In this document: piece by piece, positions 57,104-64,000 of the stretch
Layout: each line of letters begins with the position of its first letter
How positions within the stretch are numbered: the stretch's first letter is position 1
Sequence record: MT446415.1
Reading direction: 5' to 3' (one strand)
Source of the DNA: Escherichia virus TH44
DNA: 64,000 bases
Position numbers and translations under genes: made by a program
The notes under the pieces: generated by a model
Seen by the model: only the letters and a program-made list of their open reading frames with translations
Databases searched by the model: none
What the model was told of the DNA's origin: nothing

Positions 57104-57108
57104 GTTCA

Positions 57109-57135
57109 GGGACTCTTCGGAGTCCCTTTTTATTT
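57109..57135 (+). terminator. rho-independent terminator
   Basis: GGGACTC-TTCG-GAGTCCC plus TTTTTATTTT. Confidence 0.7.
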
Positions 57136-57139
57136 TCCA

Positions 57140-57215
57140 TAAAGGGGTTTACAACAGGGTTGGTCCAGTGCATAATGATTCCATACTGAGTTACACAATA
57201 AAACACTGGAGAATA
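57140..57215 (+). promoter_or_regulatory. T4-type early promoter cassette
   Basis: AAAGGGGTTTACAACAGGG, CATAAT, GATTCCATACTGAGTTACACAA, SD GGAGAA. Confidence 0.6.
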
Positions 57216-57217
57216 AA

Positions 57218-57586
57218 ATGAAAATCAATCTTAACTCATACATCAAAGGTAAAGACCACGACGGCTACAAAGCAATCGAAACTAAAGAGATGCAATGGCA
57301 CTTGTATAAAGAACAATTTGAATTCGTTTCTTGCATGACTCCAGAAGGTCCTTCTGATGACTTCTCCTGGAAAATTATGGTAACAAACTTTTTTACTGGC
57401 GACACATATGAATTGAAAACTTTGATTCTTGGTAAGATTCGTTGTAAGACCTATGAAGATGAAGAAACTGGTTATTCTGAAGATGTTACATGGTATCAAA
57501 ATGGTCGCACTACTGCTGATGATTTGATTGAAAAAATGAAAGCTAAGGGTGAATTAAATTTAGATAATTGGATTAAAGTCGCATAA
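57218..57586 (+). CDS. hypothetical protein
   Basis: 122 aa. Confidence 0.45.
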   Translation: MKINLNSYIKGKDHDGYKAIETKEMQWHLYKEQFEFVSCMTPEGPSDDFSWKIMVTNFFTGDTYELKTLILGKIRCKTYEDEETGYSEDVTWYQNGRTTADDLIEKMKAKGELNLDNWIKVA

Positions 57587-57587
57587 A

Positions 57588-57655
57588 ACAGTTTACTTTG
57601 GTACAGGTTATGATATTATAAACCTGTACCAACAAATGAAAACAACTGGAGAATA
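57588..57655 (+). promoter_or_regulatory. early promoter cassette variant with 10 bp hairpin
   Basis: GTTTAC then GGTACAGGTT-atgatattata-AACCTGTACC perfect inverted repeat around a -10-like TATTAT. Confidence 0.5.
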
Positions 57656-57657
57656 AA

Positions 57658-58023
57658 ATGAACTATATCAACTTTGAACGCAAATATGTTTCTATCGGTG
57701 CAGTTGGTTCTAACGAGTATATGAGCTTATGGGAACATAAAAATGGTTCAGTATGTGAAATTGACCATTGGGTTTCTCCTGACTACGTTTATATGCGATT
57801 TGAAAATGGTATCACTCTTTCAATCACTAAAGAAGGTTCTAATTTTAAAATTGCTTTAGATGATGATTTCCGTCAACGTGATTTGGGTACTCATCCTTGC
57901 TGGAATGGTGTTAATCGCAAGCTTCTGGTTAAAACTTGGATTCGTCATATCCTGAGCAACAAAGCAAAACCTGAACACCTGGAAGCAATCTTTGATGTAG
58001 TTCTTAATGAATTTGATATCTAA
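57658..58023 (+). CDS. hypothetical protein
   Basis: 121 aa, SD GGAGAA. Confidence 0.45.
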   Translation: MNYINFERKYVSIGAVGSNEYMSLWEHKNGSVCEIDHWVSPDYVYMRFENGITLSITKEGSNFKIALDDDFRQRDLGTHPCWNGVNRKLLVKTWIRHILSNKAKPEHLEAIFDVVLNEFDI

Positions 58024-58031
58024 TCTTAAAT

Positions 58032-58046
58032 GGGGCGAAAGCCCCT
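58032..58046 (+). promoter_or_regulatory. intercistronic GC hairpin with GAAA tetraloop
   Basis: GGGGC-GAAA-GCCCC between stop and SD GAGGAAAA, no U-tract. Confidence 0.4.
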
Positions 58047-58059
58047 TGAGGAAAATACT

Positions 58060-58347
58060 ATGTTTATGACTACTTACTTTGATACACGTAAAAATTTCTG
58101 TGAAGTTGTTTTCTCTAAAAAAGGCCCTAATGTTCCTGCCGGGTGTGAACCAACTAAAGAATCCATTAAAAACTATGTGGATGTAGTTTGCCCAGTTGAA
58201 TTCAGGACTGTTAATGGACGTGATACGCTGGCAATCACCAAGCTTAGACGCGACATTGATATTGACCCAATTGCAGCACGTGAAGTCAATTCGTCTGATA
58301 TTAATGGCGGTAATGTTAAATCACACGGTTTCCGGATGAGGTTCTAA
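58060..58347 (+). CDS. hypothetical protein
   Basis: 95 aa from internal ATG. Confidence 0.4.
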   Translation: MFMTTYFDTRKNFCEVVFSKKGPNVPAGCEPTKESIKNYVDVVCPVEFRTVNGRDTLAITKLRRDIDIDPIAAREVNSSDINGGNVKSHGFRMRF

Positions 58348-58541
58348 TGCAACTATTCTTATCACAAACTGTCCAGTTAAAAGGCATAGGTATTCCTGGA
58401 ATGATTTCTAAGGTCTTGCCTGCTTTTCAATTAGGCAATATTTCCATTAAAGAAGCATATGCAGTCCTGTGGGTTGACGGAACAGAAGACGTTCGCATGG
58501 GTGGTGAGTTGTCTGTAATCAAATGTTTAAAGCGAGGATAA
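58347..58541 (+). CDS. hypothetical protein
   Basis: 64 aa, coupled start. Confidence 0.35.
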   Translation: MQLFLSQTVQLKGIGIPGMISKVLPAFQLGNISIKEAYAVLWVDGTEDVRMGGELSVIKCLKRG

Positions 58542-58542
58542 T

Positions 58543-58755
58543 ATGTTTAAGAAACTGATTCAGAAAATTTTGGGAACAGAAATGGTTGAAGTTACTTATC
58601 GTGTAACAGACGTGAGCCCATGGGCCCGAAATATTGAACCATATACTAAAACAATTAAAATGCTGAAATCTGACGGTGGATTGTCTATTAAAGACCGTCT
58701 ACCTGGTTATGGTCATTGGGCTGATGTAGAGATTATCAGCGTCAAAGATATTTAA
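58543..58755 (+). CDS. hypothetical protein, tandem duplicate A
   Basis: 70 aa; same length and about 50 percent identical to the next ORF (EMVEVTYRV.D.SP...SIK.RLP..G.W....IISVKD). Confidence 0.45.
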   Translation: MFKKLIQKILGTEMVEVTYRVTDVSPWARNIEPYTKTIKMLKSDGGLSIKDRLPGYGHWADVEIISVKDI

Positions 58756-58764
58756 GGAATCTTC

Positions 58765-58977
58765 ATGATTAAGAAATTATTTAAAAAGCTGTTTGGCTTG
58801 GAAATGGTTGAAGTGACTTATCGTGTTATTGATTTATCACCGCCATATGCTTGCGATGAAGATGCTATTAAAACTGTTGTTATGCGAAAAACATATCGCG
58901 GGCGGTCAATTAAAGAAAGATTGCCAGACCATGGCATGTGGTATGCAACCAAGATTATCAGTGTCAAAGATGTCTGA
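58765..58977 (+). CDS. hypothetical protein, tandem duplicate B
   Basis: 70 aa; paralogue of 58543-58755. Confidence 0.45.
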   Translation: MIKKLFKKLFGLEMVEVTYRVIDLSPPYACDEDAIKTVVMRKTYRGRSIKERLPDHGMWYATKIISVKDV

Positions 58978-59428
58978 GTTAGAAATCAGAAGCAATTTCC
59001 CATGGCCGTCATGTGCATTAAGTAACTTTGCTAAATGGCCTTTTGTTATGGATGGCATCCAGTTTGGAGGTCTTGAAGGCTTCCTCCAAGGGTGCAAGGT
59101 GAGAAATAATGAACAACAAAAACGTATATTTGGGATGTCCGGATTGGCCGCCCAGCAAAGTGGAAGAGCTTATGCAAGAGCTGCGGACCGTGGGACGCTT
59201 TTCTGGCTTGGAATTCCCTTTTCAAGATACTCTACATCATGGAAAGAGTTGTATACAAATGCATATTTTGAAGCAGCGCTCCAAAACAAAGGATTCCGCG
59301 ACGCATTACAAGCCACAAAGGGCAAAGTTTTAAAGCATTCGATGGCGAGCCACCTTACTGTTCATGATACAATATTGACTGAACAAGAATTTATTGACAT
59401 ACTTAACCAATTGAGAGATGCATTATGA
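58970..59428 (+). CDS. NADAR-domain protein (YbiA-like N-glycosidase family)
   Basis: 152 aa from internal ATG; LSNFAKWPF...DG..FGGLEGFLQGCK pattern resembles the NADAR/DUF1768 signature. Confidence 0.5.
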   Translation: MSELEIRSNFPWPSCALSNFAKWPFVMDGIQFGGLEGFLQGCKVRNNEQQKRIFGMSGLAAQQSGRAYARAADRGTLFWLGIPFSRYSTSWKELYTNAYFEAALQNKGFRDALQATKGKVLKHSMASHLTVHDTILTEQEFIDILNQLRDAL

Positions 59429-60249
59429 AACCCGTTATTTTAACAGATATTGATGGCGTATGTTTGTCATGGCAGTCTGGCTTGCCTTATTTCGCCCAAA
59501 AATATAATTTACCCCTGGAACATATCCTTAAGATGATTCAGGATGAAAAATTTGTGACCCCTGGTAAACTGTTCAATTGTGATGAAGAGTTGGGAGCACA
59601 GTTGATTGAGAAATATAACTGTTCAGATTTTATTCGCTATTTGTCTCCTTACGCGGATGCGTTAAGGGTTATTAATAACCTCAAAGAGCAATATGATTTT
59701 GTGGCTGTTACGGCTCTGGGTGATTCCATTGATGCCCGTCTGAATCGTCAATTCAACCTGAATGCTTTGTTCCCTGGTGCATTTAAAGAAGTGATGATGT
59801 GTGGTCATACAGCCTCTAAAGAAGAGTTATTTCAGAAAGCGAAGACCAAATATAATGTCGTTTGTTATATTGATGACCTTGCACACCATTGCGACCATGC
59901 GAGTGAAATCCTTGAAGTCCCGGTTTATTGGATGGCCCGTGGTGAACGTGATGCTATTCCTAAAACAGCTTCCAAAGTTTTTAATTGGGACGATGTAGCC
60001 GGACAGCTTAAACTGAAACACAAAGATGAACCAGTCAAACCAGAATTCACCCCTGATGAACTCCGTAAACTGGAAGAGCTGTTTCGTGAAACTCGCCGTC
60101 TTCAACAACAAATGCAGCAAGGCTGGCAGCCAGGTCAACCATGGACCCCTGGATATAATCCAGCATATCCATATCAATATGGCCCACGCGTAGGTACCGG
60201 CATTGAATATTGGTACAATCAACCGACCGGTGGCCAAGGGGGTAATTGA
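59425..60249 (+). CDS. HAD-superfamily phosphatase / nucleotidase with Q/P/Y-rich C-terminal tail
   Basis: 274 aa; HAD motif I LTDIDGV near N-terminus; C-terminal low-complexity QQQMQQGWQPGQPWTPGYNPAYPYQYG. Confidence 0.5.
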   Translation: MKPVILTDIDGVCLSWQSGLPYFAQKYNLPLEHILKMIQDEKFVTPGKLFNCDEELGAQLIEKYNCSDFIRYLSPYADALRVINNLKEQYDFVAVTALGDSIDARLNRQFNLNALFPGAFKEVMMCGHTASKEELFQKAKTKYNVVCYIDDLAHHCDHASEILEVPVYWMARGERDAIPKTASKVFNWDDVAGQLKLKHKDEPVKPEFTPDELRKLEELFRETRRLQQQMQQGWQPGQPWTPGYNPAYPYQYGPRVGTGIEYWYNQPTGGQGGN

Positions 60250-60527
60250 TGTTTGTCGTTCATACTATTTCAGACCGTGGTCCAGTTACCACGATGGATT
60301 ACGGTCATGTTAACCAGTTTATTCGTCATGTGAATCATAATTACTCGTTTGATATTAATCCGGCTAAAGATAATCCTGTTTGGCGTGAATGTGTTGAGCA
60401 AGGATTTATCTATGTTCACTTCATGACTAAAATGAAACCGGATGGGGCGACTAAATTTGTGTTCACTTATCACAAACGCCTGGATTTGCTTTTGGAAGAT
60501 GTGGCATATAATAGAGCCAACGACTAA
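60249..60527 (+). CDS. hypothetical protein
   Basis: 92 aa from ATG (track start TTG at 60246). Confidence 0.4.
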   Translation: MFVVHTISDRGPVTTMDYGHVNQFIRHVNHNYSFDINPAKDNPVWRECVEQGFIYVHFMTKMKPDGATKFVFTYHKRLDLLLEDVAYNRAND

Positions 60528-60536
60528 GAGGTGATT

Positions 60537-62069
60537 ATGATTTTAGATATTTTAAATGAAATTGCTGCAACCGATTCCACTAAAGAGAAACAAGCTATTC
60601 TGGAATCGTATTCTGACAATGAAACCCTCAAACGTGTGTATCGTTTGACATATTCCAAAGGCATCCAGTTCTATATTAAGAAATGGCCTAAACCTGGTAC
60701 AACGTCTCAAAGCTTTGGCATGTTGAATATCGATGATATGCTTGACTTTATCGAATTTACATTAGCCTCTCGTAAATTAACAGGTAATGCTGCAATCGAG
60801 GAATTATCTGGCTATATTGCTGATGGTAAAAAAGCAGATGTTGAAGTCCTGCGGCGTGTTATGATGCGTGACCTGGAATGCGGGGCATCCGTATCCATTG
60901 CAAATAAGGTTTGGAAAGGTTTAATTCCTGAACAACCGCAGATGCTCGCTTCTTCCTATGATGAAGCCGGTATTGCCAAGAACATTAAGTTCCCGGCCTT
61001 TGCACAATTGAAAGCCGACGGCGCTCGGTGTTTTGCTGAAGTTCGTGGCGATGAGTTAGATGATGTTCGATTGTTATCCCGAGCTGGCAACGAATACCTC
61101 AAGCTTGACCTCCTTAAAAAGGAATTGATTGAAGCTACCCGTGAAGCGCGTGAGAGACATCCTGAGGGCGTTTTGATTGACGGCGAGTTAGTATATCATG
61201 AACAGAAAGTAGCTCCCCAGAATGACGGTTTGGGCTTCCTTTTTGACGATTCAGATGAGATTGCCCCTGCACAAGAAACTGCGGAATCAAGAACCTTTTC
61301 AAATGGTCTGGCCAACAAATCATTGAAAGGAACTATTTCTGCAACAGAAGCTGCTTGTATGAAATTCCAGGTTTGGGATTATGTTCCACTAATTGAAGTC
61401 TATTCTGATGTTAAGATTCTCAATCCATTGAAATACGATGTGCGTTTTGCTGTTCTGGAAAAGATGATTGCAGATAACGTGGTGCTGCATGGTTTCGACC
61501 GCATGATTCTGATTGAAAACCATGTTGTTAACAATCTTGATGAAGCGAAAGTTATCTATAAGAAATATGTTGATGAAGGTCTTGAGGGTATTATCCTTAA
61601 GAATATGGCATCGATTTGGGAAAACAAGCGCTCAAAGAACTTGTATAAGTTCAAAGAAGTAATTGACATTGCAATGGAAATCATTGGATATTACGAGCAC
61701 GATAAAGACCCGAATAAGATTGGTGGTGTTGTGCTTCGTTCTTCTTGTGGTAAGATTACAAATAACTGTGGTTCTGGTTTTAAAGACACAACTCAAGTTA
61801 AAGATAAGAAAACCAAAAAATGGGTTACTATTCCGATTGAGGAGCGTCATGAAATGGACCGTGAAGCCTTGATGGTTAAAGCTCGTAAAGGTGAATTGGT
61901 TGGAATGATTGCCGACTGTGAATGTAATGGTTGGTTGACTTCCGAGACTCGTAAAGATAATACGGTTGCATTGTTCCTGCCGATTATCAAAGGGTTCCGT
62001 TTCGATAAAGACCATGCAGACACATTCGAAGATGTATTTGGCGACTGGTCAAAGACCGGGTTAAAATAA
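60537..62069 (+). CDS. 30: ATP-dependent DNA ligase
   Basis: 510 aa from ATG at 60537 with SD AAGAGG; near-colinear with recalled T4 ligase including the adenylation lysine in QLKADGARC. Confidence 0.9.
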   Translation: MILDILNEIAATDSTKEKQAILESYSDNETLKRVYRLTYSKGIQFYIKKWPKPGTTSQSFGMLNIDDMLDFIEFTLASRKLTGNAAIEELSGYIADGKKADVEVLRRVMMRDLECGASVSIANKVWKGLIPEQPQMLASSYDEAGIAKNIKFPAFAQLKADGARCFAEVRGDELDDVRLLSRAGNEYLKLDLLKKELIEATREARERHPEGVLIDGELVYHEQKVAPQNDGLGFLFDDSDEIAPAQETAESRTFSNGLANKSLKGTISATEAACMKFQVWDYVPLIEVYSDVKILNPLKYDVRFAVLEKMIADNVVLHGFDRMILIENHVVNNLDEAKVIYKKYVDEGLEGIILKNMASIWENKRSKNLYKFKEVIDIAMEIIGYYEHDKDPNKIGGVVLRSSCGKITNNCGSGFKDTTQVKDKKTKKWVTIPIEERHEMDREALMVKARKGELVGMIADCECNGWLTSETRKDNTVALFLPIIKGFRFDKDHADTFEDVFGDWSKTGLK

Positions 62070-62071
62070 CA

Positions 62072-62092
62072 AAAGGGCTTCGGCCCTTTTTT
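62072..62092 (+). terminator. rho-independent terminator
   Basis: AAAAGGGC-TTCG-GCCCTTTT plus T-run. Confidence 0.65.
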
Positions 62093-62127
62093 AGTATAAA
62101 TACATCATATTTTATAAGGAACCTATT

Positions 62128-64000
62128 ATGTCTGAACAATTAAATGAACTCTTTGACAAATATATCGAAGCCTTCGGTTATCCTGTCATTAATATGAATC
62201 CAAAATACAAGGTCCCACAGGTTTGGCAATTCGGTGTTCCTGGGACCAATTCTCTTATGGCCCGTTTGATGCAATTCACGGGCAAAGAAACAGTTAAACA
62301 ATATAAACGTGGTGATGCAATTGCCGAGGTATTCCTGCTCTCCGGGACTTCACATGGCCATGCTGTTCCTCTGAAGGGTGGTCTAGGTGAAAAACCTCTT
62401 GATGCGATTAACCTGATTTTTGTTACAGTCTGGGAAAGCATTAAACTAGGCAAACCTGATGTAGTCTTGTTCCGTTTCCCATCCAAAAAGATGAAAGGAC
62501 AAGACCAAGCTGTTATTCGTATTATGAATCGACTGATTCAAATGAAAACTAGCGGACGTTATCATGTTCTTCCGAATGCTTCTGGCCTCGGTAAAAAGAA
62601 CGCTTATGTAATTATGTACAAAAAGGGTGTTGACCTGCTTTCGGTTGATGGTATGCCACCGGTCCCTGAGAAATATCAAAAAGTTGAAACTAAAGTTGGC
62701 GATGTATTCACCAATAAAGATACAGGTGCACAAGTCTCCAAACAAGAAATCGCAGCCGAAGTTCTGATTGATGCAGCAAACAAAAAGACCGATGCTGCTG
62801 TTGCCCAGAAAACTAAAATCAGTCGCCGAGCTATTGCACAAGCCCAGTATGCTCCAAGTGATTCCGTGCCAGACGGTTGGGACGAAATTGATGCAGAAGC
62901 TGCTAAGTTTAGTCGACCGGCTACGGCAGAACTTATCGATGATTATGAAGAACTGGAAATTTTTGTTCGACCTTCCGAAACGAATACTATGGCTCGTATG
63001 CGCGCAGCAGATGAGGCTATGCGAGCAAATGGTGTTTGGAAAGAAGAAATTCGTGTTGAAGACTCTGACCCAATTTTTAACCGTATGCATCGTGAACTTA
63101 AACGTGCCCCTGTTGGCAGTATGAAGCAGATGCAGATTTTTGCCGAATCATGTGCAGAGATTCTTAACCTTCGCAAAGCTGCATTTATCGAAAGAAAAAT
63201 GAATGATGCACCTCCTAACCTGGATGCAGCCACTTATGCAGCCTCGCTCTGGGAAAAAGAATACACAAGCGCCATTCGTGTTGCAGTTAAAGACTTTGCC
63301 GAAGAAGCATCAGAAAATACTCTTAATTTCACAGCAGGGTATACTGACAACCGTTTCCATTATGGCCAGCGAGAAGCAATCGCAGATTATTGTGGAGCAA
63401 ACTATGCCGATATTAATAATTATTTGATGGGCAAATATTATGAAGAAGAAGCTGAATTCCTAAATCTAGACAGAGTTGTCGAAACAATTAAGGAATTGGA
63501 TTCGGCCTTTGAAATTGGACATAAGTTGCCGCCGAATACAACTCTTTGGCGTGGTCAATATTTAAACGTTCCTACATTTGATAAAATTAAGAAATCTAAA
63601 TTATTTTATTTCAGGAACTATGTATCAACGTCGTTTAAACCGATTATCTTTGGTGGCTGGGTGGCGAACGTTGCTATGGCTGCAGTTCATCAGGACTATC
63701 GTGATGGGACATCTTTCCAGGCTGATGACGAAATTGTTTTACCAGATATGCCGGATGCACGCCGCGACCACGTAATGATGCATGTTGGTTGGAAAATTTC
63801 CGGGGCGGACTTAATTAACGTAATTGTTCCTGGGGAATTGTCGAGCAACCCGTCCGAGCAGGAAGTTATTCTTCCTCGTGGGACCGTAGTTAAGATTACC
63901 AAAATTACTGATGCTTCGTATCAAGGAAACGCGAACGTCAAAATGCTGGAAGCTGATATCCAGACTACGGACCAACTGGATGAAAATGCAGTTATCTATG
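62128..64000 (+). CDS. alt: Alt ADP-ribosyltransferase, partial (3-prime end beyond window)
   Basis: open frame from ATG 62128 (SD AAGGA) to the window end, absent from the ORF track; motifs LWRGQ, NYVSTSF, SEQEVILPRG; KISRRAIAQ block as recalled for T4 Alt. Confidence 0.75.
   Translation, partial: MSEQLNELFDKYIEAFGYPVINMNPKYKVPQVWQFGVPGTNSLMARLMQFTGKETVKQYKRGDAIAEVFLLSGTSHGHAVPLKGGLGEKPLDAINLIFVTVWESIKLGKPDVVLFRFPSKKMKGQDQAVIRIMNRLIQMKTSGRYHVLPNASGLGKKNAYVIMYKKGVDLLSVDGMPPVPEKYQKVETKVGDVFTNKDTGAQVSKQEIAAEVLIDAANKKTDAAVAQKTKISRRAIAQAQYAPSDSVPDGWDEIDAEAAKFSRPATAELIDDYEELEIFVRPSETNTMARMRAADEAMRANGVWKEEIRVEDSDPIFNRMHRELKRAPVGSMKQMQIFAESCAEILNLRKAAFIERKMNDAPPNLDAATYAASLWEKEYTSAIRVAVKDFAEEASENTLNFTAGYTDNRFHYGQREAIADYCGANYADINNYLMGKYYEEEAEFLNLDRVVETIKELDSAFEIGHKLPPNTTLWRGQYLNVPTFDKIKKSKLFYFRNYVSTSFKPIIFGGWVANVAMAAVHQDYRDGTSFQADDEIVLPDMPDARRDHVMMHVGWKISGADLINVIVPGELSSNPSEQEVILPRGTVVKITKITDASYQGNANVKMLEADIQTTDQLDENAVIY

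Follow-up and report, generated by a model that had tools for sequence, protein, structure and literature searches.

The Escherichia virus TH44 ortholog of T4 gp30.3 (AdfN), a phage-type NADAR predicted to counter DarTG1

NADAR proteins reverse the ADP-ribosylation of guanine bases by the toxin DarT1 (Schuller et al., Mol Cell 2023, PMC11543638). In T-even phages, resistance to the DarTG1 system was mapped to gene 30.3, and its product was renamed AdfN, for "anti-DarT factor NADAR" (Johannesman et al., bioRxiv 2024; Nat Commun 2025;16:1598, PMC11825919). The gene is necessary for resistance, and its expression in trans restores the plating of RB69 on DarTG1 cells, while it has no effect against DarTG2 (PMC11825919). 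In vitro, purified AdfN-T4 takes ADP-ribose off DarT1-modified DNA without any partner (Johannesman et al.), and T4 gp30.3 was found to hydrolyse guanosine-ADPr, not thymidine-ADPr (Toxins 2024, PMC11125620).

The activity of AdfN is context-dependent, as neither the T4 NADAR studied by the Ahel lab (PMC11125620) nor AdfN-T4 (PMC11825919) rescued uninfected E. coli from DarT1. AdfN also works poorly in phages T5 and Bas25. A T4-encoded factor was inferred to be necessary for full activity, and DNA modification was ruled out using T4-GT7 (PMC11825919).

The adfN gene and its surroundings in TH44

We analysed a 64,000-nt stretch of the genome of Escherichia virus TH44 (MT446415.1), referred to here as the window and numbered from its first letter. 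The original prediction had pointed to an open reading frame of 152 amino acids at 58970-59428 as a NADAR-domain gene. The frame is present on the plus strand, runs from an ATG to a TGA and encodes a protein starting with MSELEIRSNFPWPSCALSNFAKWPFVMDGIQFGGLEGFLQGCK. All three strings quoted as its NADAR signature (LSNFAKWPF, DG and FGGLEGFLQGCK) are found in the translation.

The frame remains open upstream of the ATG as far as a GTG at 58823, which would give a protein of 201 residues. The start at 58970 is nevertheless supported, because identity to T4 gp30.3 in the pairwise alignment runs from residue 1, because remote gp30.3 homologs in an alignment of 47 sequences begin only a few residues from this ATG, and because the gene overlaps its upstream neighbour by the same length as in T4. 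The second 30.4-like gene (58765-58977) ends with a stop codon at 58975-58977, and direct reading of the sequence places the 8-nt overlap with the adfN start at 58970-58977 on the plus strand; the T4 30.4/30.3 overlap, at T4 positions 128758-128765, is also 8 nt long. The construct used in the Toxins 2024 study (PMC11125620) was described as "T4 phage NADAR (gp30.3; residues 1-208)", whereas RefSeq T4 gp30.3 has 152 amino acids. Given this difference and the open frame up to the GTG at 58823, it is possible that an N-terminally extended construct served in that work.

Aligned with T4 gp30.3, the window protein shows 86% identity across its entire length (152/152 residues), and the alignment is free of gaps. 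Against the Phage_30_3 family (PF08010) it scores 215.9 bits (E=2.1e-64; cut-off 36), with residues 12-150 covering positions 2-138 of the 138-position profile, and it matches phrog_652 with E=3e-50. The PF08010 match and the homologs in 1510 phage records show that this frame did not arise by chance. The local gene order is 30.8, 30.7, 30.6, 30.5, two 30.4-like genes, 30.3, 30.2, 30.1 and DNA ligase, and the order 30.4-30.3-30.2-30.1-ligase and its overlaps are common to the window and T4. By sequence and synteny, the gene can be assigned as the ortholog of T4 gp30.3 (AdfN).

A 4.9-kb region around the gene (57200-62100) is 94-96% identical to the Escherichia phages CJ20, PSD2001 and VR20 and to Shigella phage SP18, which is recorded as a Gaprivervirus. 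The window belongs to a T4-like Tevenvirinae phage of a different lineage from T4, closest to CJ20/PSD2001 and VR20/SP18. The adfN gene is located inside a tightly overlapping, early-type block that extends from gene 30.8 to the ligase gene, with a hairpin at both ends, one preceding gene 30.8 (57108-57127) and one following the ligase gene (62071-62090). These hairpins are consensus matches only, and the promoter and terminator scan of the window was not richer than shuffled controls. Scanning the full window for tRNAs and Rfam families returned no match, and NCBIfam gave no match for gp30.3, gp30.2 or gp30.1.

The surrounding region contains several additional features. The two 30.4-like genes, at 58543-58755 and 58765-58977 on the plus strand, are tandem 70-residue paralogs of T4 gene 30.4 that both match phrog_2042. 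The two copies share 54% identity, and their identities to T4 gp30.4 are 44% and 28%; T4, RB69 and SP18 contain a single copy at this position. Inside adfN, the +1 frame contains a 74-residue ORF (59109-59333, plus strand), the equivalent of the annotated T4 gene 30.3', with which it shares 61% identity. A stop-free run of 76 codons is retained in this frame by 14 of 17 close relatives sharing at least 85% identity, the exceptions including RB69 (40 codons), locus L018 (61 codons) and the truncated locus L024; the median run among 75 distant homologs is 41 codons. The conservation could reflect a coding function, or it could be passive within a constrained gene.

Past the ligase terminator hairpin, an Alt-like ADP-ribosyltransferase gene (about 62128-64000, plus strand) runs off the end of the window. 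Its product is 32% identical to SP18 AltA over about 600 residues, in a neighbourhood where the 30.x block is 94-100% identical to SP18. From the sequence, it looks as if the alt allele, 2.7 kb downstream of adfN, has been swapped or is highly divergent. At the other end, the window starts with primase gene 61 (9-1037), followed after about 470 bp by dCTPase gene 56 (1507-2043). The gap between them contains two small hydrophobic minus-strand ORFs (1034-1234 and 1243-1470), at the place where T4 has dam. By T4 synteny, adfA (61.2) would be expected just upstream of window position 1.

NADAR fold and catalytic residues

The assignment of the window protein to the NADAR superfamily does not come from a direct profile match. 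In a Pfam scan, PF08719 (NADAR) did not match the protein at E≤1. The same profile matches 14 of the 47 aligned members of the gp30.3 family at E≤0.01, the best at 1.5e-7. The sole sequence match in the PDB is E. coli YbiA, in which FSNFAAWPIKVDGKTWPTSEHYFQAQK is aligned to LSNFAKWPFVMDGIQFGGLEGFLQGCK of the window protein; its E-value is 1.2 for the single sequence and improves to 0.0064 with the profile of the 47-sequence family, where it is the only meaningful match. The structure model has high confidence and shows a NADAR fold, with YbiA as the second-best structural match. Sequence identity to YbiA (2B3W) and to the NADAR of P. nicotianae (8BAU) is 19-22%. The PF08719 matches within the family, the PDB profile match and the predicted fold establish the NADAR membership, so this part of the original prediction stands, although the direct PF08719 match that it had looked for is lacking. 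Phage_30_3 (PF08010) is a separate Pfam family that forms the phage branch of the NADAR superfamily, and the window protein is a full-length, single-domain NADAR fold of this phage (His-type) subfamily.

The catalytic glutamate is Glu36 (codon GAA, 59075-59077, plus strand), which is invariant in the 47 homologs and aligned to the glutamate of the YbiA segment SEHYFQAQK. The phosphate-coordinating lysine is Lys43 (AAG, 59096-59098, plus strand), kept in at least 90% of the homologs. Their equivalents are E43 and K50 in the P. nicotianae NADAR and E88 and K95 in the E. coli C7 NADAR, with the same spacing of seven residues, and both carry the same numbers as the residues mutagenised in AdfN-T4. 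[quoted passage not shown] The window protein has His123 (CAT, 59336-59338, plus strand) at the end of model strand 120-122, invariant among the 47 homologs. E36, K43 and H123 are thus all retained, and the same is true for all invariant positions of the family.

[quoted passage not shown] The E36A and K43A variants kept partial rescue in the published version of that study, which indicates that catalysis may not be the whole story. In RB69, a single extra T cuts 15 residues off AdfN, which explains the sensitivity of this phage to DarTG1 (PMC11825919). The alignment of the window, T4 and RB69 sequences shows that the extra T, which truncates the RB69 protein after T137, is missing from the window; the frame reads through to residue 152 and the helix, formed in the model by residues 138-151 (59381-59422, plus strand), is intact. 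By every feature examined, the window gene is a functional-looking ortholog, and from this intact allele the phage is predicted to be resistant to DarTG1, unlike RB69. Such a prediction is useful for forecasting host range.

Predicted role of AdfN and the question of gene 30.2

The window gene is very probably adfN, encoding the anti-DarTG1 DNA ADP-ribosylglycohydrolase of a T4-like Tevenvirinae phage. By analogy with the T4 ortholog, DarT1 in a DarTG1 cell would ADP-ribosylate guanines of the phage DNA and block its replication. AdfN would then hydrolyse the N-glycosidic bond of the guanine N2-ADP-ribose, releasing free ADP-ribose and unmodified DNA that could be replicated again. The protein would be an orphan enzyme with an antitoxin-like action, as opposed to a protein that binds the toxin, and it would probably become fully active only in the course of a T-even infection, with the help of a phage factor as for AdfN-T4.

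The counter-defence against DarT-type guanine ADP-ribosylation that was originally proposed for this gene has been demonstrated for T4 gp30.3/AdfN, to which the window protein is so closely related, with E36, K43, H123 and the helix unchanged. The idea was right, but it is not new: the anti-DarT role of adfN is already known from the published T4 experiments, and the biology of the window gene is covered by the papers of 2023-2025. Beyond these, it bears only on the identity of the T-even factor that potentiates AdfN. The main practical consequence is for annotation. Almost all related GenBank records label the gene "hypothetical protein", and this should be replaced by adfN, anti-DarT factor, NADAR-type DNA ADP-ribosylglycohydrolase.

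It is conceivable that the main substrates of AdfN are not DarT1-modified DNA, but soluble immune signals derived from ADP-ribose, adducts left by other ADP-ribosyltransferases specific for guanine or cytidine, or modifications introduced by the phage enzymes Alt and Mod. An Alt-like gene is located about 2.7 kb downstream (near 62128), Johannesman et al. deemed further targets possible (PMC11825919), and NADARs are also reported to reverse cytidine ADP-ribosylation (PMC12945103). We nevertheless consider this reading unlikely, as both the genetics and the biochemistry of T4 AdfN point to de-ADP-ribosylation of DNA with a DarTG1-specific phenotype, and any additional substrates would add to the role on DarT1-modified DNA and not replace it.

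A second alternative involves the neighbouring gene 30.2 (59425-60249, plus strand), which encodes a HAD-fold core (residues 1-200) followed by a disordered tail. The claim that it is translationally coupled to adfN agrees with direct reading of the sequence: the ATG of gene 30.2 (59425-59427) and the TGA of adfN (59426-59428) form an ATGA overlap at 59425-59428 on the plus strand. T4 has the same 4-nt overlap between 30.3 and 30.2 (T4 128307-128310). The window gp30.2 is 66% identical to T4 gp30.2. The HAD motifs I-IV (DxD, T/S, K, DD) can be traced in an alignment of 33 sequences, in which D8, D10, K132, D150 and D151 do not vary and at least 90% keep T96. The score against Pfam HAD_2 is 14.2 bits, below the cut-off of 23.8. 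The AF2 model has a pLDDT of 87.6, with the core above 90 and the disordered tail (about residues 235-274) below 50. A Foldseek search of the PDB returned 104 matches at E≤0.001, of which the best 50 are all HAD-fold; the top match is the cytosolic 5'(3')-deoxyribonucleotidase 2jao (E=2.7e-8). The label "HAD phosphatase" given to this neighbour is thus a fair one, borne out by the four motifs and the fold, which in the model is nearest to nucleotidases.

The tail of gp30.2 (60025-60249, plus strand; pLDDT <50) is rich in Q, P, G and Y and ends with the motif TGIEYW-YNQPT. A related motif, GIEY(L/W)xN(Q/R)PT, is present at the C-termini of many gp30.2 homologs of variable length, while in others the tail is missing altogether. 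It could serve in docking.

AdfN and gp30.2 could form a two-enzyme module, in which the HAD protein either processes the released ADP-ribose, as originally suggested, or potentiates AdfN. The shared ATGA overlap, the retention of all HAD catalytic motifs and the requirement of AdfN for a T4 factor (PMC11825919) are compatible with such a module. The overlap is a weak sign of a functional link, as genes throughout this block typically overlap at their starts and stops. Adjacency of the two genes was observed in RB69 and SP18. Among six further phage-record loci examined beyond T4, an Acinetobacter phage has gene 30.2 next to 30.3 and a Slopekvirus has it at a distance of 0.5 kb; in the other four (RB49, Aeromonas phage 31, a KVP40-like phage and S16), none was found within 4 kb of 30.3. 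In 80 IMG/VR loci with gp30.3, it is adjacent in 14, lies within 1.5 kb in 5 and is absent within 5 kb in 58, the flank being too short in the remaining 3. Thirteen of the 14 adjacent loci are from close T-even relatives (85-99% identity) and one is distant (45%). The pairing of 30.3 and 30.2 is not conserved outside T-even relatives. A homolog on a 308-kb phage-like contig (P0107) also has neighbours without HAD or DarT genes.

The gp30.3 homologs, which include one from Methylocystis (P0045), show a variety of other genomic settings. In RB49 (locus L004, 3995-5957), the gene overlaps the DNA ligase gene directly, with neither 30.2 nor 30.1 in between, and in Aeromonas phage 31 and Salmonella phage S16 (L003 and L006) it has moved into the tRNA gene cluster. 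These placements show that the NADAR gene is mobile within Straboviridae genomes.

The chemistry also argues against the module. ADP-ribose is a pyrophosphate diester without a phosphomonoester, so a HAD phosphatase could probably act only after Nudix cleavage, and by structure gp30.2 resembles deoxyribonucleotidases most closely. In its purified form, AdfN removes ADP-ribose from DNA unaided, and other phage NADARs act as single genes (Johannesman et al.). Taken together with the unconserved pairing, this leads us to set aside the suggestion that the HAD protein processes the released ADP-ribose, and the module as a whole is improbable.

It is about equally improbable that gp30.2 is the T-even factor on which the full activity of AdfN depends. 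The gp30.2 family (1439 records, against 1510 for gp30.3) was found in T4-like phages only; T5 and Bas25, in which AdfN performs poorly, therefore probably lack it. If gp30.2 were the factor, this would explain the failure of AdfN-T4 in uninfected cells and in T5 and Bas25 infections, and AdfN would have been domesticated into a two-gene unit in the Tevenvirinae. More than 100 other genes are T-even-specific, and nothing singles out gp30.2 among them.

The window allele could also be inactive, like that of RB69, in spite of its full length. It differs from T4 at 22 positions, some of them near His123 (for example HLTVH in place of the T4 GLTKD at 128-132). This is very unlikely, as the allele keeps the invariant positions of the family, has no frameshift and is modelled with high confidence, and alleles 95-99% identical to it are present in many related phages. 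The reading that survives least well is that of a housekeeping N-glycosidase of the YbiA type with intermediates of the riboflavin pathway as substrates, which is barely credible even though YbiA is the only sequence match in the PDB and ranks second by structure, as that family is defined by the last-strand glutamate in place of the phage-type His123, the published phylogeny puts the gp30.3 cluster nearest to the DarG1 NADARs, and an anti-DarTG1 role has been demonstrated for the T4 ortholog.

Comparison with known systems

With adfN as the preferred identification, the gene can be placed among the described DarT antagonists and NADARs. DarG1 antitoxins, represented by the E. coli C7 NADAR and the Geobacter lovleyi NADAR (PDB 8BAT), are encoded adjacent to the DarT1 toxin gene. 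No DarT gene was found next to adfN in the window, where the neighbours are a 30.4-like gene and 30.2, and PADLOC returned no meaningful match for adfN and gene 30.2 (best E=0.039, a Type I specificity subunit). DarG1 proteins have an N-terminal extension and an aspartate on the last strand, whereas the core of the window protein starts at about residue 12, without an extension, and carries His123 instead. AdfN-T4 cannot replace DarG1 in uninfected cells (PMC11825919). E. coli YbiA (2B3W) and the P. nicotianae NADAR (8BAU) differ from the window protein by their last-strand glutamate, and YbiA, unlike AdfN, is a housekeeping protein of riboflavin damage control.

AdfA (T4 gp61.2) and AdfB (ICP1) share with AdfN the targeting of DarTG. 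They are small, non-enzymatic proteins without a NADAR fold that are thought to bind DarT. NADAR-Bas32 and NADAR-Bas60, from phages that are not T4-like, are stand-alone phage NADARs that counter DarTG1, as AdfN does. They fall into other clades of NADARs, their acquisition was independent, and, unlike AdfN-T4, they are active in uninfected cells and for unrelated phages.

The closest system is AdfN-T4 itself. The window differs from it by the 22 substitutions, by its different Tevenvirinae lineage and by the two tandem 30.4-like genes, of which T4 and SP18 have one. It resembles AdfN-T4 in its length of 152 residues, in E36, K43, H123 and the C-terminal helix, and in the flanking genes and their overlaps.
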